From Candidatus Krumholzibacteriia bacterium (GTDB lineage: Bacteria > Krumholzibacteriota > Krumholzibacteriia > WVZY01): 13,450 nucleotides of DNA. The stretch's first letter is position 1; every line of letters begins with the position of its first letter. The notes beneath the pieces are model-generated. The model made no database searches, had not been told where the DNA came from, and saw only the letters and a list, made by a program, of their open reading frames with translations. Below, piece after piece: positions 416 through 12,235 of this stretch. The DNA is taken from positions 1-13,450 of the forward strand of contig JAZGDW010000091.1 of assembly GCA_036478295.1 (NCBI GenBank), read 5' to 3'. A program made the position numbers and the translations under genes.

Positions 416-883
416 ATGGAAGGCGGACGAACCATAGGGCAGCTGGCCGGTGAGCTGGGGCTTCCTGTTTCCACCCTGCGCTACTACGAGCGCGCGGGGC
501 TCGTTGCCCCCAGCGGCCGGAGCGACGGGAACTACCGCATCTATGATCGCGCAGCCGGAGACCGAATCCGGTTCATCCGCATGGCGCAGTCGACCGGGTT
601 TACGCTCGCCGATATCCGCTCGCTGCTCGCTCTGCGGGACGACGAGACGGCTCCTTGCGGAGAAGTTCGCGGGCTGATCGAAAAGCGGCTCGCCGACACC
701 GCCGAACGCATAAAGGAATTCAAAGAGGTTCAGCTGCTTCTCAAGACGTTTCTCAAGAAGTGCGAGGCCGCTGAAGCGGACGAAGAGTGCCACGTGATGG
801 AGGAGCTCGAGCCGACGGACAGCGACAGCTCTGTCGATGAGTTGAAACCGGTCAAGCGCACCAGGCGGCGGACCCGACAATAG
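416..883 (+). CDS. MerR-family heavy-metal-responsive transcriptional regulator (MerR/CadR/ZntR/PbrR type)
   Basis: N-terminal HTH TIGQLAGELGLPVSTLRYYERAGLV...GNYRIY, then RFIRMAQSTGFTLADIRSLL, and three Cys at 81, 116 and 125. Confidence 0.95.
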   Translation: MEGGRTIGQLAGELGLPVSTLRYYERAGLVAPSGRSDGNYRIYDRAAGDRIRFIRMAQSTGFTLADIRSLLALRDDETAPCGEVRGLIEKRLADTAERIKEFKEVQLLLKTFLKKCEAAEADEECHVMEELEPTDSDSSVDELKPVKRTRRRTRQ

Positions 884-937
884 ACCCCCCCCGGGTGCCC
901 GCCCACCCGCCACTATCATTTTCCAAAAAAAGTTAGT

Positions 938-959
938 AACCTTGAACCCAGGTTCAAGG
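938..959. promoter_or_regulatory. Perfect palindromic operator, probable binding site of the MerR-family regulator
   Basis: CCTTGAACC-ca-GGTTCAAGG (940-959) is a perfect 9-bp inverted repeat with related copies at 377-396 and 1212-1232. Confidence 0.7.
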
Positions 960-1049
960 AGTCTAATAGGTATGGAAGAACGGGATGCTTGCGGCCCTAT
1001 TTCGATTAGCAGCCTAACCCGTTGAAAAATAGCAATTAGGAGAAAAGCC

Positions 1050-1151
1050 ATGAAACGTATCATCTGGATAGCCACAGCGGCCTTACTGGTCGTGGCCAAA
1101 GCGTTGGGCAAGGCGATCCACTCCGCGGCCCTCTCTGTCATAGGACGCTAG
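1050..1151 (+). CDS. Small 33-aa hydrophobic or signal-peptide-like ORF (possibly a gene remnant)
   Basis: AGGAG RBS at 1038-1042 and ATG at 1050. Translation MKRIIWIATAALLVVAKALGKAIHSAALSVIGR, then TAG. It is below the ORF-track length cutoff. Confidence 0.45.
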   Translation: MKRIIWIATAALLVVAKALGKAIHSAALSVIGR

Positions 1152-1208
1152 GAGAACCTGGTGGAACGGGGGGCTCCGGGTACCGTGCCCTATCGCGGCC
1201 CCGGGGGC

Positions 1209-1240
1209 TTGACCTTGCACTACGGTTCAGGTTTTAGACT
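1209..1240 (+). promoter_or_regulatory. MerR-type long-spacer promoter for the selenoprotein/metal operon
   Basis: TTGACC (1209-1214), 20-bp spacer, TAGACT (1235-1240), with an imperfect dyad ACCTTGCAC-TAC-GGTTCAGGT over the -35 and spacer. A 19-20 bp spacer is the hallmark of promoters activated by MerR-family proteins. Confidence 0.8.
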
Positions 1241-1257
1241 GTTTAGTGAGGGCCATT

Positions 1258-2022
1258 GTGAAATTGCGAAAGATGAAATCCTGGATGTTGCTTGTGACCC
1301 TGTGGCTGGTTATCGGGCTCGGTCCGGTTGCCGGCGATGGTGGGCCGCAGGCCCGTGGACTGTGCGAAACGGCCTCGGGCAAGGAGGAGTCCCGGGAGGG
1401 TGACACCGAACTCGCCACTGTGACGCTCGCCGTCAAGGGGATGATGAAGAGCCGCAGCGGCGCTACCTGATTCGGCTGACCCGACGGGGTTCGGGCGGCC
1501 CTGGAAGGGCTGCGAGGAATTAAAAAGGTGACGATGCTTGCCGAGAGCGATGCATTTATCGTCCAGTACCAGAGGAGCCGTGTGAGCGTCGCCGCGATGA
1601 TGGAGAAGATACGCGCCCTCGGCTACCGCCCGGAGGAAGTCCAATTCTTGAAGCGCGGCGACAAGACCGCCCCGACGTTCAGCGACCTGCCGGAGCCCAT
1701 CGCGGCCGCATGGGAATCGGCAAAGCGGAAGGGCAAGATCCTGGTGCTGGATTTCTATGCGTCCTGGTGCGCTCCCTGCAAGATACTCGAGCGCGATGTC
1801 CTGCGTTCCGCCAGGGTCGAGAAGGCACTCGGCGAATTCGTTTTTCTCAAGGTAGACACGGATCGTTACCCGAAGGCGGCCGAGCATTTCAGGGTAAGGG
1901 CGCTGCCCACATTGATTATGATCGACACACGGGGCCACCTGCGCGACAAGCACGTCGGCTTATTGAGCGTCGATGAACTCGTCGAGAAGTTGGACGCTTT
2001 GAAACGGAGCGCCGTAGACTGA
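1258..2022 (+). CDS. Predicted secreted di-selenoprotein: signal peptide + HMA (MerP/CopZ-like) domain with UxxU + thioredoxin (WCAPC), about 254 aa, Sec at TGA 1468-1470 and 1477-1479
   Basis: Track ORFs 1246-1470 and 1528-2022 are in the same frame, joined by ACC TGA TTC GGC TGA CCC. Read-through gives VTLAVKGM-MKSRSGA-T-U-FG-U-PDGVRAALEGLRGIKKV...MMEKIRALGYRP, a full HMA fold, followed by ILVLDFYASWCAPCK...RALPTLIMID. The start is GTG 1258 (GAGGG at 1248-1252), with GTG 1246 and ATG 1273 as alternatives. Confidence 0.85.
1474..1513 (+). other. Candidate bacterial SECIS hairpins for the two UGA codons
   Basis: Hairpin A (1474-1500): GGCTG-a-CCCGA[cggggt]TCGGG-CGGCC. Hairpin B (1495-1513): GCGGCCC[tggaa]GGGCTGC. 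Both have G at loop position 2. Folded by eye. Confidence 0.55.
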
Positions 2023-2053
2023 CGAGAGCACCGCCCCCCTAAGGGAGATATCG

Positions 2054-2365
2054 ATGAAGAAGATTACGATTTTTTATTTTGAAGGCTGCCCGAACTACGA
2101 TCCAACGGTAACCCTGATCCAGCGGGTTCTGGATGAACTGGGTATCGAGGCCGTTGTGGAATCGGTCGAAGTGAGGGGCAGCGATGACGCCCAGCGCCTG
2201 CGCTTCTTCGGGTCACCCACCGTGCACGTGGAGGGAGCCGACATCGATCCGGCGACGGAAGGGCGCTCGGATTACGGTATCAGCTGCCGCAAGTATGGTC
2301 CCTCGGGTACCCCGAGCCGTAACATGGTCGTCGAAGCGCTCGAGAAAATCGAAGGTGAATCATGA
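2054..2365 (+). CDS. Small thioredoxin/glutaredoxin-fold protein of the type found in mercury/heavy-metal operons
   Basis: RBS AGGGAG upstream. Motifs IFYFEGCPNY, FFGSPTVHVEGADID (cis-Pro loop) and GISCRKY. The stop overlaps the next start (ATGA 2362-2365). Confidence 0.85.
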   Translation: MKKITIFYFEGCPNYDPTVTLIQRVLDELGIEAVVESVEVRGSDDAQRLRFFGSPTVHVEGADIDPATEGRSDYGISCRKYGPSGTPSRNMVVEALEKIEGES

Positions 2366-3894
2366 CGGCAACCGGTGGTGGGCGCGCGAATCTCTGGACG
2401 GCGGGTGGTTCCATTGTGGCCGCCGTGGCGGCGTCGGCCTGTTGTTGGCTGCCGCTCGCACTCATCGTCTTTGGCGCCTCGGCCGGGGGGCTATCGGCGG
2501 CGTTCGATCGGCTCCGGCCATTGTTTCTGGCGATTTCAGTGGTCCTCTTGTCCGCCGGGTTTTACTTGAACTATTTTCGCAAGGAAAGGTGTGAACCGGA
2601 TATGGCATGCGCGAATCCGAATCCGAAACTGAAGCGATTCAACCGCGTGGTTCTGTGGGTGGCCACCGCCGGCGTTCTGGCGTTTGGGCTTTTTCCAAAC
2701 TACGTGGGGGCGCTGTTCGGCGGGAGTGACTACGCGGTAGCGGCGGAGCGTAAAGACAATTCGCAGATGCTCCTCAGGGTGGACGGCATGACCTGTGCCG
2801 GATGCGCCTCCAACGTCAAAAGGTCTCTCATCGGCGTTATAGGTGTCCTCGATGTAACGGTGAGTGTCGCGGAGAGCCAGGCAATCGTGAGGGTGGACCC
2901 GAAACACCCGCCGGCCATGGAGACCCTGATCGTCGCCGTAAACAAAACGGGCTACCGGGCCAGTTTATGGGTTAGCACCGCAGCCGCGGCGCCTGCCGGG
3001 GAGGTTGCCGGCGCCGACGCGGAGGACGAGCGAGCAGAAATCATCGTCGGGCACTGGTCGGGTACCGTCAAAACACCCGATGGGGACATACCGGTGGTGG
3101 TCGATATTACGCGTCTCGATGACGGACGCTGGCTCTCGGAAATCGATCTCAAAGATTACGACATGGAAAACTACGCGGCCGACGTCGACCGGCGTGGACG
3201 GACGTTGACCCTGCGGCTGAGCGGCATCGAGCTGGTCGGCAACATTTCCGAGGACGGAACCACGTATGCGGGTCGTTTCCTGAGCGGTGACGCCGAGTTC
3301 ACGTTCGAGCTGACTCGCCGGGGCGAGCCGGAGATTTCGGAATTGCGGCTCGAGCTGGAAACGTCGAAGGTCGACGTTGCCGCGCTGAAAACGCTTTCCA
3401 GCGACGCCGCCGAACTCAAGAAACTCTTCAATGACCAGGATAATTCGGTGCGGCTGGTGGCGCTTCTGTCACCCTCGTGACCGATGTGCCAATTCGGCGC
3501 CCGTGTGGTGCAGCAGCTGCTCTACGAGATCGAGGACGAGAACTTTCGTGCGTACGTTGTGTGGGAACCCATCCTTCGGACGGATAACCGTGAGGCCGCG
3601 GTAAAGGCTACCGCGCTCATCGAGGATCCGCGGGTCACACACTACTGGACCGATAGCCGCGACGTGGGGCACCTCTTCAGCCCCTCGATCGCCCTCGAGA
3701 ACGAGCCCGCCTGGGACGTGTATCTCCTCTATCCGGCGGGAAACCGCTGGCAGGCCGAAGCCCCCAAACCGGACTACTTTCAGCACCAGCTCGGTGGACG
3801 TCTGCCGCCGGATCAGCGTCTGGACGGAGATGCCCTGGCCGACCGAACGGAGACGCTTCTCGAGAAGCTGTCGCGGCTCGAAATGTCGCGCTGA
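2362..3894 (+). CDS. Predicted selenoprotein fusion: MerT-like membrane domain + HMA (GMTCAGC) + beta-rich linker + thioredoxin-like UxxC domain, 510 aa, Sec373 at TGA 3478-3480
   Basis: MerT features are AASACCWLPL in TM1, the cytoplasmic pair CEPDMAC, and three TM segments. The HMA motif GMTCAGC is at 2785-2805. ORFs 2362-3480 and 3484-3894 are in frame, joined by TCG TGA CCG ATG TGC, giving VRLVALLSPS-U-PM-C-QFGARVV (beta strand, redox motif, helix). There is no RBS before ATG 3484. Confidence 0.85.
3497..3511 (+). other. Candidate SECIS apical hairpin downstream of UGA 3478-3480
   Basis: GCGCC[cgtgt]GGTGC. The loop starts 22 nt after the UGA with G at loop position 2, nearly the same spacing as hairpin B after UGA 1477-1479 (23 nt). 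Confidence 0.45.
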
Positions 3895-3945
3895 CGGAAC
3901 CCCCCACCGCAGGCGCTGCGCTTGACGCGGTGGCGCGCCACGGTG

Positions 3946-3985
3946 ATGCCTCCTTCAAGTAACGACTTGAAGGAGGCATTTTTTT
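3946..3985 (+). terminator. Rho-independent terminator closing the metal operon
   Basis: Perfect 15-bp stem ATGCCTCCTTCAAGT[aacg]ACTTGAAGGAGGCAT followed by a T-run. Confidence 0.9.
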
Positions 3986-4025
3986 CGTGTGTAGGGGGGA
4001 CGTTCGCTCGGAAGCCGGGCGCGGA

Positions 4026-4190
4026 TCAGTGCCGGGGCTCGAGTTTGATATACTTCTGCAGTGTGGCAACCAGCTGCGGTACGACCAACTCGATAAAGTG
4101 CGACTGCTCCCATTTCGGGATGCCGCGCTTGAGACGGTCTTCCAACCGGTTAAGGTCTTCCTTGTCGATCAAACGAGCTTCTTGCCTCAT
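4026..4190 (-). CDS. Small hypothetical protein (54 aa)
   Basis: MRQEARLIDKEDLNRLEDRLKRGIPKWEQSHFIELVVPQLVATLQKYIKLEPRH, with a GAGGTG RBS (complement of 4197-4202) 6 nt before the ATG at 4190. Helical, protein-like composition. Confidence 0.6.
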   Translation of the reverse strand: MRQEARLIDKEDLNRLEDRLKRGIPKWEQSHFIELVVPQLVATLQKYIKLEPRH

Positions 4191-6180: not shown

Positions 6181-6431
6181 AGCGAGCCGGACCAATTTAG
6201 AGCTTTCTTCAGGCAAGTTCGTGGTGTATACTCACGAACCACACAAGTGCCCCTCCACAGCACTCGTACCTCGGGAGCATGCTGAATCTCACTGCTAAGA
6301 GTCCGACAGCAGTTCTCCGGTTCACCAGTTAGTCGAACGCCGAGAGGCGCCGATGGCTGGCTGGCGAAAACCGGTTGACGTGGTACCGCAGACCCGACCA
6401 TCGGGTCGAAGACATGCACGGAGGATCACTA

Positions 6432-8861
6432 ATGTCCCACCGTCGCTCGTTCGGGCGTCTTTACCTCGCAAGTGTCAGTTTCGTTGTCTTCACGGTCTCA
6501 GCACTGATCCTGGTGCCGTCCGGAAATGGCCGGGTTGCGGCGGCGGAGTGGTCGTGGCAAAACCCCCTGCCCCAGGGGAATCCCCTGGCCGCGGTGCAAT
6601 CGGTAGACGCCACGACGGCGTTCGCTGTCGGGGAAATGGGCACCATCCTGCGCACGACCGACGGGGGAAACACCTGGGAAAGCAGATCGGGCAGGACCAC
6701 AATTTCCCTGAGCGGTCTTTCATTCATCGATGTCATGACCGGGATCGCTGTTGGAGCTGGCGGGACGATCCTTCGCACAACCGATGGGGGGAACACCTGG
6801 GTCAGTCAAACTAGCGGGACGACCGACTGGCTCAATGACGTTTCTTTTGCCGACGCCATGACGGGCTGGGCGGTGGGATGGTCCGGGACGATTCTCCGCA
6901 CGGTCGATGGTGGAAACACGTGGGTCAGGCAAATCAGCGGAACGACCAGCGAGCTCACGGGCATCTCGTTCAGCGATGCCATGACGGGAACGGCCGTGGG
7001 CTACGAGGCCACGATTCTCCGCACGGTCGATGGCGGGAACACCTGGGTTACTCAGGCCAGCCGCGTACCGTGTTTTCCGACCAAGCACGGCCCGGAGTGT
7101 CCCCCGTTCTATGACGTTTCGTTCACTGACGTGTGGAACGGGACGATCGTTGGCTATGCCGGGACAATTCTCCGCACAAACGATGGCGGCACTACCTGGA
7201 ACCTTCAAACGAGTTCGACCTTCGCATCGCTCCATGGAGCCTCGTTTATCGATGCCATGAGGGGCGTTGTCGTTGGAAACGGAGGGACGATCCTGTACAC
7301 GACAAATGGCGGGATCACCTGGCAGAGTCGGCCGAGCGCGACGGGAGAGACGCTCTTCGGCGTTTCGTTTGCCGGTGCGGTGGGGACTGCCGTGGGATCC
7401 TCCGGGACAATTGTCCGGTCCATCGATGGAGGGACCGGGTGGGAACGCAAATCCATGGGATCGACGGCCGCGCTTCAGGGAGTCTCGTTCACCGATGCCA
7501 TGACGGGAACGGCCGTGGGATCCGGCGGGACGATTCTCCGCACGGGCGATGGCGGGCGCACCTGGGTGAGCCAAACGAGCGGAACGACAGAAACGCTTCT
7601 TGACGTTTCGTTCACCGACGCCATGACCGGAACTGCTGTCGGATACGCCGGGACTATTCTCCGCACGACTGATGGCGGGAGCACCTGGGTCGGCCAGACG
7701 AGCCCGGCGACCGAGTGGCTCTCGGGAGTTTCCTTCACCGATGCCATGACCGGGATTGCCGTGGGACGAGATGGCGTGATGGTACGAACCACCAATGGGG
7801 GAAACAGGTGGGTCAAGCTCGCGAGCGGGAACACCCGCCATCTCCATGGGGTCTCGTTCACCGACGCCATGACGGGCACCGCAGTGGGCAACTGGGGCAC
7901 GATCTTGCGCACCGACGACGGGGGGAGCACCTGGAACAGGCAAGCGGTCTGGATATCAGCCCATCTCACTGGCGTTTCGTTCACCGATGCCATGACGGGC
8001 ACAGTGGTTGCGGGAGGGTGCCGGATTTATCGGACCACAAACGGGGGCAGCACATGGTTCCAGCAGTTGTGCGATGATTCGGCCTATCTCCTCGACGTCT
8101 CCTTCGCAGATGCCTTGACGGGAGTCGCAGCGGGAATCGGGGGTGCGATTGTTCGCACGACCGACGGGGGAATCACATGGACCCGGCAAACGAGTGGGGC
8201 ATCGGTGACGCTCCAGGGCGTCGCATGCACGGGCGCCGGGACAGCAGTCGTCGTTGGGACATCCGGGACCATTCTTCGCTGGCAAGATGATACCGTGACA
8301 CCCGTTTTTATCACCGATTTCCGTGCGACACCGGTCGACGACGGTATCGAACTCGCCTGGTCGCTGTTCGCCGACGAGCCCGTCAACGGCATTTACCTCT
8401 ACCGGTCGAGGCTTGACGATGCAATCGAGAGTCCGTTAAATGAGCAGCCCCTGGCGGGCACGGCCCGAAGCTATGTCGACATGACCGCAGTTCCGGCCGT
8501 GCGCTACCGTTACACGCTCGCCGTGTTGGGTGCGGAATCCGGCGAAATCCGCTCGGCACCCGTAGAAGCCGAGCGAGCGCCTCTGGCGGCGCAGTTGTTT
8601 CAAAACCATCCCAACCCGTTCAATCCGGTAACGTCAATTCGGTACACGCTTCCGCGGACAGCCCACGTCACGCTGAACGTTTATTCACCTTCCGGCAAAC
8701 TGGTTCGCACACTGGTCGACCGTGCGGTCCCCGCGGGGAGCCGGCAAGTAACCTGGGACGGAACGAACAACTCAGGCAGCCCGGTCGCGTCCGGCGTTTA
8801 CATGTACCGGCTGCGGATGGGCAAGGTCACACGCTCCAAGAAAATGACGCTTCTCAAATAG
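6432..8861 (+). CDS. Secreted YCF48/BNR-repeat beta-propeller protein with C-terminal FlgD-Ig/T9SS type-A-like sorting domain (809 aa)
   Basis: GGAGG RBS at 6420-6424 and ATG 6432, then a signal peptide. About 14 repeats of L.GVSF.DA.TG.AVG..GTILRT.DGG.TW. C-terminus LFQNHPNPFNPVTSIRY...WDG.N..G..VASGVYMYRL...KKMTLLK. Confidence 0.92.
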   Translation: MSHRRSFGRLYLASVSFVVFTVSALILVPSGNGRVAAAEWSWQNPLPQGNPLAAVQSVDATTAFAVGEMGTILRTTDGGNTWESRSGRTTISLSGLSFIDVMTGIAVGAGGTILRTTDGGNTWVSQTSGTTDWLNDVSFADAMTGWAVGWSGTILRTVDGGNTWVRQISGTTSELTGISFSDAMTGTAVGYEATILRTVDGGNTWVTQASRVPCFPTKHGPECPPFYDVSFTDVWNGTIVGYAGTILRTNDGGTTWNLQTSSTFASLHGASFIDAMRGVVVGNGGTILYTTNGGITWQSRPSATGETLFGVSFAGAVGTAVGSSGTIVRSIDGGTGWERKSMGSTAALQGVSFTDAMTGTAVGSGGTILRTGDGGRTWVSQTSGTTETLLDVSFTDAMTGTAVGYAGTILRTTDGGSTWVGQTSPATEWLSGVSFTDAMTGIAVGRDGVMVRTTNGGNRWVKLASGNTRHLHGVSFTDAMTGTAVGNWGTILRTDDGGSTWNRQAVWISAHLTGVSFTDAMTGTVVAGGCRIYRTTNGGSTWFQQLCDDSAYLLDVSFADALTGVAAGIGGAIVRTTDGGITWTRQTSGASVTLQGVACTGAGTAVVVGTSGTILRWQDDTVTPVFITDFRATPVDDGIELAWSLFADEPVNGIYLYRSRLDDAIESPLNEQPLAGTARSYVDMTAVPAVRYRYTLAVLGAESGEIRSAPVEAERAPLAAQLFQNHPNPFNPVTSIRYTLPRTAHVTLNVYSPSGKLVRTLVDRAVPAGSRQVTWDGTNNSGSPVASGVYMYRLRMGKVTRSKKMTLLK
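6585..8282 (+). repeat. Intragenic tandem repeat, about 126-nt (42-aa) unit x 14
   Basis: 13 DGGxTW-type Asp-box motifs plus a final partial unit. The DNA motifs TTCACCGA(T/C)GCCATGACGGG and GGGACGATTCTCCGCAC recur. Confidence 0.9.
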
Positions 8862-9181: not shown

Positions 9182-12100
9182 ATGTCGAGAAGCACTGCTG
9201 TTAGAGTTCTCGCCATCGTATCGATCGCCGCCACGGCGTTTTGCTTCGCAGGTAACCGCGTGTACGCGCAGTCGCGCGGGACCATCAAAGGAAAGGTTGT
9301 CGACAAGAAGACGAATCATCCCCTGGCGTGGGCGAACATCATTGTCGTGGGTACTGGAAAGGGCGCGATGAGCATGGATGACGGCCGGTTTGTCGTCGAG
9401 GGGGTTCCCGTCGGCACCTACCAGCTGAACGTGTCCATGATGGGATTCAAGACTGTCTCACGCTCAATGGTTGCCGTCAATGCCAACCAGGCCACCGAGC
9501 TTTCCTTCGCATTGGCGGAAACCATCGTTGCGGTAGTGCCGGTCATCGAAGTAATCGGCAGAAAACCGCGGATTGACACTGGAGCGTCGCACACGGTCAC
9601 GATCAAGTCCAAGGAACAGATCACGGAGACGGCGATCGAGACAATATACGATCTCCTGGAACATTCGGCAGGCGTGGTTCGATGGGGTGACCAATACTAC
9701 GTACAGGGCAGCCGGCCCAATGAAATTCAGACGCAAAACGACGGCGTGCTCTTAATGGATCCGCTCGCCAACGGCTCCATCGCGATCGGCAGGCTGGCGG
9801 CCGCCGAGACGGAGTTCATCGCCGGTGGCATGGATGCCGAATACGGCAACGCGCAGGCAGCGATCTTCAAGATTCAAACGCGCGAGGGGGGCAAGCACTT
9901 TGCCGGTGAGCTTCGTTACATGACAGACGACTTCGGCCGCGCGGACAGGACGTATACGAACTATGACAACTTCAGCCTGGGTTTCGGCGGTCCGACGCCG
10001 GTCGAGAACCTGCGGTACTACATATCCACGGAGGCGACGTTTCTCGACGGAGAGAATAGTTCGATTGAGCCGCGCCGCGAACACAAGAACCGCATACTCA
10101 GCTGGCTAAAAGCACGTGACCGCATGTCGCACAGCTTGAACCTCCAGTCAAAGCTCTCGTGGAAGCGGGGCGGCGTCAAGCTGACGGGCGAAGCAATCGC
10201 CCAGCGTTCACGCCGCGAAGAGTACCACCACAACTGGAACATCCAGGGATACGCCCGCAAGGTGTACTACTTCCAGCAGCTCATCGATACCGGCACCGGC
10301 CACGACGTATTCACCTTCGGCGGCATTTCCATTCAGTACGCGGGGCCGTGGCTCGATGATGTAAACGACCCCGGCAAGCCGCCCAATCCCCGGCGGGTGG
10401 TTGTCGAACAGCTCGTCCGCGACCCCGAGACGGGCGAACAGCAGCGGGTGGTCCATGAGAACTTTCGTGCCGTCGATGTCAACGGAGTAACGATTCTGTG
10501 GGACGAGGCGGTCACCGGCGGCGGAGAGGTAGGTCGCAAGCCCTGGGTACTCTTTGAGGGCTTTCAATTTCCGTTCAGCGAGTTCAGCCATGAAAGAGAG
10601 GATTCGTCGTTCGTGTTCTTCAACTCCGCCACACGGTCGCCGGACGTCAAGACAGACAACCTTCAACTCAAACTCGCGTTCAATCACAGTATTTCCGACA
10701 AGGTGCTCTATACGATCCGCCTTAGTCGCCTGGAGTTCAACCTGACACGCAGCGTTGGCGGCAAGGCGCCGCAAGACTATGCTTCTGCCGGGTTGCCGGT
10801 CACCCTGCCCGGCGGCACCTTTCTCGAAGGGGGCGTCTCACAGGCCGCCTGGTACACCGACCCCGACCATCCGTACTTCGTGACGGCCTACGACTTTCCC
10901 GTCTACACGAAACGCAAATCGATCCAGTACCTTTTCCGAAGCGACGTCACGTCGGAGAGATTGGCGGGGCACCGGATAAAGACGGGACTTCAGTTCATCT
11001 ACAACGATCTCAACAACGACAATCGTGTGTTTCCGGCACAGCAGCGGCGTGACCCGTTGAGCGGCACGATTCAACAGGGCCGAAACGTGAACATCTTTCA
11101 CAACTTCAACACCGAGGGGGCAGTGTATCTTCAGGACAAATGGGAATACGAAGGTCTCGTCGCCAATGCCGGCATGCGCTTCGAGTACTTTTCGACGGGT
11201 AACACCGACGAGGTCAAAATCGCCAACTCACAGATCGAACGAGAGGTTCAAAAGTACAAGACGAACTGGTCACCCCGGTTGGGCGTTGCGTTCCCTATTA
11301 GTGACCGTAACAAGTTCTTCTTTCACTACGGCCGGTTTACCCAATGGGCCAGCCGGGCGTTTCTCTTCGCGACGCAGGACGCCATCGGGGCGATTGGCGC
11401 CCTGGGCAACCCAAACCTCGAACCCGAACTTACCGTGTCGTACCAGGCGGGGATCTCACATCAGTTCACCGAGAATACCGTCGGCAACTTTGTGATTTTC
11501 AACAAGGACATCTTTGGTCTGGTTTCGTCGACGCGTGTGACCGATGATTCAACGGGAATCCAGAGCCGGCGATACATAAACCGGACGTATGCCAGTTCGC
11601 GGGGGCTCGAGCTCGCGCTCGAGCAACGCCTCACCCGCCGCTTTGGTTTCGAAGCGTACTATACCTACTCGTTTGCCGACGGAGTGGCGAGCGACGCGGA
11701 CTTCGGGCGCTCGGCGGCCGGGCTGACGCACCTGCCCACCGACGAACTACCACTGGACTGGGACCAGCGCCATACCTTCAACCTCAATTTGCGGTTCCGG
11801 GAGCGTAACAACTGGGGTACGACCATCACGTACCAGTTCGGCAGCGGGCTGCCGTGGACGCCGGTCAACCGGTTCGGGCGACTGCAGGACCCCAAGCTTG
11901 AAAACTCGCGGCGCCACGATGCGGTCCACCGCCTGAGCTTGCAAGGACGGAAACGGTTCAACATCTACGGGCGCGAGCTGACGTTATTCATCGAGGGCAG
12001 AAATCTACTGGATGAAGACATCGTGACGCCCGGGGGCATAGCACCCCAGGTCACACCAAACATGGTCGTGGCTGACATGGATGACGGCGCGTACCTGACC

Positions 12101-12235
12101 GAGACCGGACGGTACGGCGGCGCGTACCTTCAGGATATCGATGACGACGGCGTCAATGACTTCGTACCCGTGAACGATCCAACCGTGTTCGAGCAGCACC
12201 GGGTCTGGCGAGTCGGGTTTGGGTTCGAGTTTTAG
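9182..12235 (+). CDS. TonB-dependent receptor with N-terminal carboxypeptidase-regulatory-like domain (1017 aa)
   Basis: Signal peptide, then GTIKGKVVDKKT..PL..ANI.V.GT.KGA. Plug motif GGMDAEYGNAQAAIFKIQTREG. Barrel motifs WSPRLGVAFPI and GNPNLEPE. C-terminal VGFGFEF. Confidence 0.95.
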   Translation: MSRSTAVRVLAIVSIAATAFCFAGNRVYAQSRGTIKGKVVDKKTNHPLAWANIIVVGTGKGAMSMDDGRFVVEGVPVGTYQLNVSMMGFKTVSRSMVAVNANQATELSFALAETIVAVVPVIEVIGRKPRIDTGASHTVTIKSKEQITETAIETIYDLLEHSAGVVRWGDQYYVQGSRPNEIQTQNDGVLLMDPLANGSIAIGRLAAAETEFIAGGMDAEYGNAQAAIFKIQTREGGKHFAGELRYMTDDFGRADRTYTNYDNFSLGFGGPTPVENLRYYISTEATFLDGENSSIEPRREHKNRILSWLKARDRMSHSLNLQSKLSWKRGGVKLTGEAIAQRSRREEYHHNWNIQGYARKVYYFQQLIDTGTGHDVFTFGGISIQYAGPWLDDVNDPGKPPNPRRVVVEQLVRDPETGEQQRVVHENFRAVDVNGVTILWDEAVTGGGEVGRKPWVLFEGFQFPFSEFSHEREDSSFVFFNSATRSPDVKTDNLQLKLAFNHSISDKVLYTIRLSRLEFNLTRSVGGKAPQDYASAGLPVTLPGGTFLEGGVSQAAWYTDPDHPYFVTAYDFPVYTKRKSIQYLFRSDVTSERLAGHRIKTGLQFIYNDLNNDNRVFPAQQRRDPLSGTIQQGRNVNIFHNFNTEGAVYLQDKWEYEGLVANAGMRFEYFSTGNTDEVKIANSQIEREVQKYKTNWSPRLGVAFPISDRNKFFFHYGRFTQWASRAFLFATQDAIGAIGALGNPNLEPELTVSYQAGISHQFTENTVGNFVIFNKDIFGLVSSTRVTDDSTGIQSRRYINRTYASSRGLELALEQRLTRRFGFEAYYTYSFADGVASDADFGRSAAGLTHLPTDELPLDWDQRHTFNLNLRFRERNNWGTTITYQFGSGLPWTPVNRFGRLQDPKLENSRRHDAVHRLSLQGRKRFNIYGRELTLFIEGRNLLDEDIVTPGGIAPQVTPNMVVADMDDGAYLTETGRYGGAYLQDIDDDGVNDFVPVNDPTVFEQHRVWRVGFGFEF

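Follow-up and report, generated by a model that had tools for sequence, protein, structure and literature searches.

The 13,450-nucleotide stretch analysed here (the window) belongs to the genome of a Candidatus Krumholzibacteriia bacterium. Bases 1258/1273–2022 of its forward strand are one gene, encoding an exported protein of about 250 residues in which an HMA domain with U-F-G-U in place of C-x-x-C, U standing for an in-frame UGA codon, is fused to a DsbD-gamma-like thioredoxin (Trx) with the active site WCAPC. Both UGAs are very probably recoded to selenocysteine (Sec) by the SelA/SelB/tRNA-Sec system. Taken as a whole, the observations are best explained by an exported HMA(UxxU)-Trx selenoprotein whose recoding would be directed by a selenocysteine insertion sequence (SECIS) and which would capture mercury-type (Hg-type) metal in a MerR-type operon, an explanation that we regard as probable. 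The protein and its orthologs form a distinct and apparently obligate Sec-dependent HMA subfamily, set apart by an insert, an export signal and the Trx fusion; the one UxxU-HMA family so far catalogued has a cut-off that it does not reach.

A reading frame across two UGA codons

The single forward frame 1258/1273–2022 carries in-frame TGA codons at 1468–1470 and 1477–1479 (T-U-F-G-U-P), and both coincide with the two metal-ligand cysteine positions of the HMA domain. Across the motif the frame reads ...VTLAVKGMMKSRSGAT-U-FG-U-PDGVRAALEGLRGIKKV...IRALGYRP..., then ...LDFYASWCAPCK..., and it closes with the TGA at 2020–2022. Read through in full, the order is a hydrophobic N-terminus (MKSWMLLVTLWLVIGLGPVAG), ...ATVTLAVKGMMKSRSGAT-U-FG-U-PDGVRAALEGLRGIKKVTMLAESDAFIVQYQRSRVSVAAMMEKIRALGYRP..., a linker and ...ILVLDFYASWCAPCK..., while genetic code table 11 cuts the same gene into the open reading frames (ORFs) 1246–1470 and 1528–2022. 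An earlier, sequence-only reading of this DNA had noticed two TGAs in one frame at an HMA motif, followed by a thioredoxin; its coordinates and pattern are confirmed, and a predicted N-terminal signal sequence agrees with its view that the product is secreted. The features of the gene are as follows.

1258..2022, + strand: predicted selenoprotein gene, signal peptide + HMA(UxxU) + thioredoxin(WCAPC); start GTG 1258 (GAGG 5 nucleotides upstream) or ATG 1273, stop TGA 2020–2022
1273..1335, + strand: N-terminal hydrophobic export signal (MKSWMLLVTLWLVIGLGPVAG), from the sequence; low predicted local distance difference test (pLDDT) values in this part of the AlphaFold2 (AF2) model
1411..1638, + strand: HMA domain (ferredoxin-like beta-alpha-beta-beta-alpha-beta) with 7 residues inserted ahead of the metal motif; AF2, family profile, NF041115 alignment
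1468..1470, + strand: first in-frame UGA, predicted Sec and first metal ligand; frame, orthologs, family profile
1477..1479, + strand: second in-frame UGA, predicted Sec and second metal ligand; frame, orthologs, family profile
1699..2013, + strand: thioredoxin domain of the DsbD-gamma type, W-C166-A-P-C169 (TGC at 1768–1770 and 1777–1779); Pfam Thioredoxin 6e-15, Foldseek

For scoring against Pfam and NCBIfam, U was read as C. The thioredoxin part, correctly recognized in the earlier reading, reaches 55.5 bits against Pfam Thioredoxin (PF00085; cut-off 23.5) and has both the W-C-x-P-C motif and the Trx fold. Its best local NCBIfam matches are DsbD (58 bits) and TsoB (49.7 bits), and the best Foldseek matches of residues ~140–249 in the Protein Data Bank (PDB) are to the DsbD C-terminal domain (1vrs_D, E 2e-8, root-mean-square deviation 1.8 over 105 columns), with thioredoxins matched as well. 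A profile built from the HMA part of the family matches 40 solved HMA sequences, among them ATP7B, CopA, MerP (1afi) and CopZ, with the U columns lying on their CxxC. Structure prediction, one of the checks that had been proposed, models both folds: AF2 on the 34-row alignment A5 (U as C) gave a pLDDT of 88.3 and a predicted template modelling score (pTM) of 0.77, with the N-terminal 45 residues disordered. The HMA domain (pLDDT 95–98) is modelled as a strand at residues 47–55, the insert as a short excursion, a helix at 68–78, strands at 83–89 and 94–100, a helix at 106–115 and a strand at 119–122, with the metal motif (residues 66–69) between strand 1 and helix 1; the thioredoxin fold spans residues 143–247.

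Conservation of the UGAs and the hairpins behind them

In a search of 5.8 billion proteins, six pass E 1e-3; the sixth is an unrelated thioredoxin-fold protein, and the five close homologs (65–96% identity) are all 162 residues long and start with MLAE/MLLE right after the second TGA. A phmmer search with the HMA part against 1.84 billion representatives gave 274 matches at E 1e-3, of which 150 were listed and 149 retrieved. Among the matches listed, the canonical GMxCxxC is present in 138 of those 149, four (P0026, P0028, P0059, P0145) have the window's insert and W-x-x-W at exactly both U columns, which would fit a gene caller reading TGA as Trp, and three (P0052, P0114, P0136) begin directly after the motif. 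Neither the 150 representatives listed nor the 32 loci described below include a Cys-Cys form that carries the 7-residue insert of the family. Because the public gene calls seen truncate or mistranslate the family, a widespread exported selenoprotein is absent from annotations and selenoproteome counts.

Searches of nucleotide data with the single window protein returned no related loci in metagenome contigs or genome contigs, and alignment A1 returned nothing in metagenome contigs. In genome contigs A1 found mostly generic thioredoxins and one useful locus, L037, from a Gemmatales metagenome-assembled genome (BPJP01000001.1): a lipoprotein of 31% identity that reads ...KGFKKSKSGAV-U-MA-U-PNAV... 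and ...FYASWCVPC..., with both TGAs. Within the organism's own phylum, a profile of the HMA part (A3) places the gene in two of 208 genomes, that of the window (G000) and G056, each with two TGAs; the G056 ortholog reads GGMMKSRSGAT-U-FG-U-PDAV followed by WCGPC. A search of the 35 other genomes of the same order found no ortholog and matched only the thioredoxin part. In Planctomycetota, 45 of 401 sampled genomes have a match at E 1e-8 and 38 hold at least one six-frame match with two TGAs. The 51 Planctomycetota matches contain two TGAs in 42 cases, one in 3 and none in 6, these last being low-scoring, with 4 in open frames of 821–848 residues and all six aligning only from about profile position 16.

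Thirty-two orthologous loci from the two phyla, the window included, were examined as DNA, with 21 further Planctomycetota matches left out. U-x-x-U-P occurs in 31 of them and U-x-x-C-P in one (L148). With two TGAs retained at all loci but one, the pattern exceeds chance, for which the earlier reading had argued from the improbability of two independent nonsense mutations. The homolog alignment for CxxC, UxxC and UxxU variants that it had called for yields 31 UxxU, one UxxC and no CxxC with the insert. The UGAs behave as Sec codons are expected to: protein conservation continues on both sides of the UGAs in the orthologs that keep them, spanning both TGAs across two phyla at 26–38% identity, and the codons align to functional cysteines, both of them in the CxxC of solved HMA domains and the second also in the U-x-x-C of L148.

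The rest of the protein varies more. A lipobox-like motif (loose pattern) precedes the domain in 24 of the 32 loci, and the window and G056 proteins have plain signal peptides without one. The C-terminal thioredoxin has W-C-x-x-C in 14 loci and a third TGA (U-x-x-C) in 17, one further locus ending at a contig edge. The 17 (L122, L127–L132, L134, L135, L137–L141, L143, L144 and L148) read …GPG-U-x-x-C… or …GD[TN]-U-x-A-C…, the frame past the third TGA is a normal thioredoxin continuation, and table 11 cuts each gene into three pieces. L134 and L135 have a fourth in-frame TGA about 60 codons past the third (…AIPDT-U-IL…). As the relatives L138 and L141 read …AIPD[TV]-R-IL… here, with Arg in its place, this TGA may have arisen from CGA or may encode a fourth Sec. 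Further motifs of this kind are a second HMA-like ORF downstream of the family gene in L124 (G-A-T-U-G-A-U), a second HMA repeat at the C-terminal end in L136 (G-M-T-U-P-D-G-U) and a third domain at the C-terminal end in L147 (…SGAET-U-U-PS…). An IS3-type transposase (rve, HTH_21) lies immediately upstream of one Planctomycetota family member (L122:146-1024) and, together with the patchy spread of the gene in the organism's own phylum, hints at horizontal transfer.

Independent assemblies of the locus also retain the codons. Public sequencing runs were consulted as Logan contigs, from which depth and expression are not readable; the best run shares 0.36 of the sampled words, and none shares half. 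Contigs from other marine-sediment runs span both TGAs in X1 (record 1; 1200–1895, 28 differences), X2 (record 9; 1296–2100, 26 differences) and the RNA-library run X14 (record 7; 1451–1672, 3 differences), with 19 less-supported differences outside the listing. None of the differences listed falls on either TGA, and the nearest, the only one within 1438–1531, is 1471 T>C. Since the contigs with 26–28 differences show none listed at the TGAs, diverged relatives keep both stops. The X14 contig is a weak hint that the locus is transcribed.

Alignment A4 of the 32 loci is gap-free across the 57 nucleotides from the first UGA and contains two hairpins.

1477..1492, + strand: hairpin 1 (UGACCC-GACG-GGGUUC), with the second UGA in its stem; A4 columns 10–15/20–25
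1495..1513, + strand: hairpin 2, SECIS candidate (GCGGCCC-UGGAA-GGGCUGC), encoding A-L-E-G-L; A4 columns 28–34/40–46

In hairpin 2, 89.7% of cells are paired and compensatory changes occur in five of the seven pairs, pair 33/41, for instance, occurring as C-G (29 sequences), U-A (2) and G-C (1), and pair 29/45 as A-U (15), C-G (9) and G-C (2). The whole structure has a covariation score of 0.223; shuffles give 0.106, with 0 of 500 reaching the observed value, and slid controls give 0.074 at most. Hairpin 1, with 80.7% of cells paired, appears moderately supported. Hairpin 2 starts 15 nucleotides past the second UGA and its loop 31 and 22 nucleotides past the first and the second UGA, distances that both fall inside the 16–37 nucleotide range of bSECISearch. 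Position 2 of the loop is G in all 32 sequences. By the bacterial criterion given in PMC13582414, a SECIS is a stem-loop just downstream with G at apical loop position 1 or 2, as in the UGGAA loop here; the same paper suggests a single SECIS for UXXU hydrogenases. An Rfam scan of the window gave no family at gathering score and no bacterial SECIS match. From this comparative evidence, hairpin 2 is a candidate SECIS that would direct the recoding of both UGAs.

Decoding machinery and operon

The window is part of contig C308. In the assembly as a whole (3.52 Mb, 316 contigs, 91% complete) tRNA-Sec, SelA, SelB and SelD are all represented, SelD as a fragment only. The selA match scores 476.2 bits and selB 383.5 bits, over its cut-off, and the one tRNA-SeC(tca) shows Sec-type features, an acceptor stem of 8 bp and a G preceding CCA. 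ARAGORN finds 40 tRNAs in all, with no further tca and no gca tRNA, and the second-best Rfam tRNA-Sec match is a tRNA-Leu. The selD fragment, 79 positions at a contig end (G000:C118:2-229), carries an in-frame TGA of its own, which suggests that SelD is itself a selenoprotein here. TGA closes 549 of 1312 long open frames genome-wide, besides several window genes; it is a frequent ordinary stop, and the recoding is therefore local, with no variant code.

The gene is the first of an operon controlled by a MerR-type regulator, in which two proteins account for three Sec codons.

416..883, + strand: MerR-family metal-responsive regulator with three Cys (C81, C116, C125); Pfam MerR_1 65.7 bits
1209..1240, + strand: putative promoter of the MerR type, TTGACC-N20-TAGACT, whose spacer contains a weak ACCT/AGGT dyad; found by eye
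2054..2365, + strand: DF family (seleno)protein, Cys form; NCBIfam NF049942 108.2 bits, cut-off 70
2362..3894, + strand: second candidate selenoprotein, MerT, HMA(CxxC), linker domain and Trx-fold domain, with TGA 3478–3480 read through; shared frame, homologs, AF2
3945..3990, + strand: intrinsic terminator ending the operon, 16-bp stem + T run; terminator scan

The regulator scores 100.3 bits against NCBIfam MerR (TIGR02051) and 103 bits against ZntR, both under cut-off. Its closest plasmid relative (47% identity, Planctomycetes K2D pK2D_1) is encoded divergently from a gene annotated as merA and has a counterpart for each of C81, C116 and C125, whose spacing we take to be that of Hg-MerR. 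The element at 1209–1240 would be a MerR-type promoter; a sigma-70 scan with spacers of 16–18 nucleotides found nothing in 850–4100, as expected from the over-long spacer of a MerR-type promoter. The DF gene is flanked by the two selenoprotein genes, and the ATGA overlap of its stop with the start of the MerT-HMA gene suggests translational coupling of the two; our literature search found no paper on the DF family as a selenoprotein.

In the second candidate selenoprotein, a membrane protein, ORFs 2362–3480 and 3484–3894 form one frame of 510 residues through the third TGA of the operon (…VRLVALLSPS-U-PM-C-QFG…). Pfam assigns MerT (41.7 bits, cut-off 32.9) and HMA (50.9 bits) to the first of them. 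The longer homologs (P0164, P0189, P0193–P0199), in which the upstream sequence is conserved too, read …VRLVALLSP[TVR]-C-x-x-C… at this place; of the other homologs most (38 of the 48) have a length of 98–136 residues, and the three of these that were aligned start with the motif or directly behind it, P0160 and P0165 with M-C-Q. The C-terminal domain has no Pfam or NCBIfam family match and is modelled by AF2 (pLDDT 90.2) as a TlpA/ResA/GPx-like Trx fold with U at the N-end of helix 1. A hairpin search after this TGA (3478) was not significant (z = -0.15).

Of the mer-type components, then, the genome has a MerR-like regulator, under cut-off with its three Cys conserved, and a MerT domain, and its best MerA match reaches 324.7 bits against a cut-off of 454. 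A MerR, CsoR, MerT, HMA or zf_CopZ neighbour is found in 12 of the 31 other loci, each with about 1.5 kb of flank.

Known systems, mechanism and rival explanations

SelL is a eukaryotic selenoprotein in which U-x-x-U can form a diselenide and sits in a thioredoxin-fold (Prx-like) domain. The sequence-only reading had placed UxxU with the SelL family, an attribution that we correct, as UxxU is not confined to SelL; here it sits in the HMA fold, and the thioredoxin, unlike in SelL, is a separate domain with CxxC. An HMA domain with UxxU is a known kind, given the NCBIfam entry NF041115 ('UxxU_metal_bind, metal-binding (seleno)protein') and the 'Putative mercuric reductase PRK13748 UxxU' listed in PMC9312934. 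For NF041115 a 2026 review cites Zhang & Gladyshev 2007, whose main text contains neither 'UxxU' nor 'mercuric reductase'. The window protein shares with NF041115 an HMA domain in which both metal-ligand cysteines are replaced by UGA-encoded Sec. It differs from that 74-position, stand-alone domain model by the insert (73 residues align to 66 profile positions, leaving 7 extra), the export signal and the C-terminal thioredoxin.

Three further systems invite comparison. Like MerP, the periplasmic Hg(II)-binding protein of mer operons (TIGR02052; PDB 1afi), the window protein has a signal peptide, a single HMA domain and Pro after the second ligand, and it adjoins MerR and MerT genes; the family profile matches 1afi at E 9e-10. 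Unlike MerP, it has Sec instead of Cys, an insert and a fused Trx, in a genome with no MerA above cut-off. The gamma domain of DsbD (PDB 1vrs, 2fwf), a periplasmic reductant domain, is the best structural and NCBIfam local match of the Trx part, which lacks the DsbD membrane domain and is fused to HMA instead of serving DsbD-alpha. The UXXU of group 4 [NiFeSe] hydrogenases, as described in 2026 in PMC13582414, likewise replaces a metal-ligand CxxC, its two UGAs being three codons apart, and has a SECIS-like hairpin downstream; protein family, metal and compartment are different, and Cys or single-Sec forms are common there, whereas 31 of 32 loci here have UxxU. A literature search, supplements aside, found no paper on an HMA(UxxU)-thioredoxin fusion.

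In the mechanism that we propose, both UGAs would be recoded by the SelA/SelB/tRNA-Sec system, directed by hairpin 2 and perhaps assisted by the weaker hairpin 1, which includes the second UGA. In the envelope the two selenolates would bind a soft metal, most likely Hg(II), with a much higher affinity than thiolates have; the fused thioredoxin, re-reduced via DsbD, would reopen the stable diselenide formed in the oxidising periplasm; and the metal would then be handed to the MerT-type protein. DsbD is present in the genome, and diselenides are very stable, as peptide redox potentials indicate. Whether the Sec pair binds metal as a bis-selenolate or forms a diselenide, the two options named in the sequence-only reading, is a matter of inference: metal capture seems to us the reasonably likely role, and recycling of the Sec pair by the thioredoxin an even call. 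Because the fused domain would reopen a diselenide, the mechanism would explain why half of the family has a U-x-x-C thioredoxin, as a Sec nucleophile in that site would suit attack on the diselenide. A bolder version, which we consider decidedly unlikely, has an obligate Sec-dependent HMA subfamily using one SECIS and a helper hairpin for two UGAs 9 nucleotides apart, with the Trx-cycled diselenol as a MerA-independent envelope system for Hg(II) or methylmercury (reductive release or HgSe-type sequestration), a selenium alternative to the mer pathway.

Several observations weigh against the proposal. Selenium incorporation at both sites is a prediction from the sequence, if a highly probable one. 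The HMA model check suggested in the earlier reading came out divided: fold and family profile indicate HMA, but the Pfam HMA score (PF00403) is 19.6 bits, under the cut-off of 24.8, and the identity of the domain therefore rests on the profile and the fold. NF041115, an equivalog model with a cut-off of 95, gives 39.2 bits (28.7 in six-frame search), with 40.0 bits for the Gemmatales ortholog and 53 bits, above the window gene product, for the Cys-type HMA of the neighbouring MerT protein. MerP (TIGR02052) gives 27.9 bits against 92.55, and on the HMA part every Pfam and NCBIfam model stays under its cut-off. In the RNA, covariation in hairpin 1 is weak (one of six pairs, GC 15, CG 6, UA 1), and the fold of the window's own 106 nucleotides is not significant (z = -1.06), which leaves the hairpin to comparative data. 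As the sequences are related, the covariation figures overstate their independence; the compensatory pairs are the real evidence. The spacing between UGA and hairpin departs from the rule of E. coli fdhF, and one element would have to serve two UGAs 9 nucleotides apart. ARAGORN finds no tRNA-Cys in the 91%-complete assembly, and a second UGA-reading tRNA could therefore be unassembled too. The gene is rare in its own phylum (2 of 208 genomes), and in 19 of the 31 other loci the flanking 1.5 kb contains no metal gene. With no MerA above cut-off, the proposal does not account for what becomes of captured Hg, and since a bis-selenolate should have a higher Hg affinity than the two Cys of MerT, the hand-off would be uphill.

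The main rival explanation keeps the selenoprotein and changes its task: HMA(UxxU) would be a redox relay and not a metal store, with the DsbD-gamma-like Trx feeding the Sec pair in the place of DsbD-alpha, and the pair reducing Hg(II) to Hg(0) without MerA, selenite/tellurite, Cu(II) or a partner protein. The natural job of DsbD-gamma, the closest relative of the Trx domain, is to reduce a partner domain; the failure to find a MerA in the genome and the Sec in the Trx active site of 17 of 32 family members point the same way. The related NF041115 is labelled 'putative mercuric reductase' in reviews (PMC9312934 and PMC13188914), only through the likeness of its HMA to the MerA N-terminus. HMA domains are, however, known as metal binders and not as reductases, and the operon combines transport (MerT) with sensing (MerR) and has no obvious electron source beside the gene. 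A diselenide is moreover a poor oxidant and hard to re-reduce. On balance we find the relay rather unlikely.

Cysteine insertion and true termination are much less likely. One or both UGAs might be read as Cys, by a SelB-dependent tRNA of the tRNA-ReC type, or as another residue, making the site C-x-x-C or mixed U/C. PMC13582414 describes tRNA-ReC-like genes as enriched in UXXU-hydrogenase genomes, where either UGA might be Cys, and an assembly lacking even tRNA-Cys could miss such a tRNA. We nevertheless judge it very improbable, given the single tca tRNA with Sec-type features, the tRNA-Leu as next Rfam match, and the presence of selA, selB and the selD fragment; TGC or TGT would also be simpler if Cys were wanted, yet no Cys-Cys form of the subfamily is seen. 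That the TGAs are true stops, in a decaying gene or between two genes (a 74-residue peptide and a 164-residue thioredoxin protein from GTG 1528), is scarcely credible. Database gene calls make the same split in all five close homologs and the window's RNA fold is not significant alone, but conservation across both TGAs in the 32 loci already contradicts termination; the split would, on the model, sever the HMA fold between strand 1 and helix 1, independent contigs retain both TGAs despite 26–28 other differences, and hairpin 2 has compensatory changes.

The family, which ranges over 38 of 401 sampled Planctomycetota genomes and marine sediment bacteria, offers a compact natural system for SelB/SECIS decoding of two UGAs three codons apart, with two conserved hairpins within 46 nucleotides. 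The operon, where two proteins under a MerR-type regulator have three Sec codons between them, ties selenium use directly to mercury-type metal handling. If the bis-selenolate does bind Hg(II), it would be relevant to the antagonism of mercury and selenium in sediments and to designing metal binders of very high affinity.

Elsewhere in the window, and unrelated to the selenoprotein genes, the translations show a large BNR/Ycf48-like repeat protein with a C-terminal sorting domain of the type IX secretion system (T9SS) type at 6375–8861 and a TonB-dependent-receptor-like protein of 1017 residues at 9182–12235.

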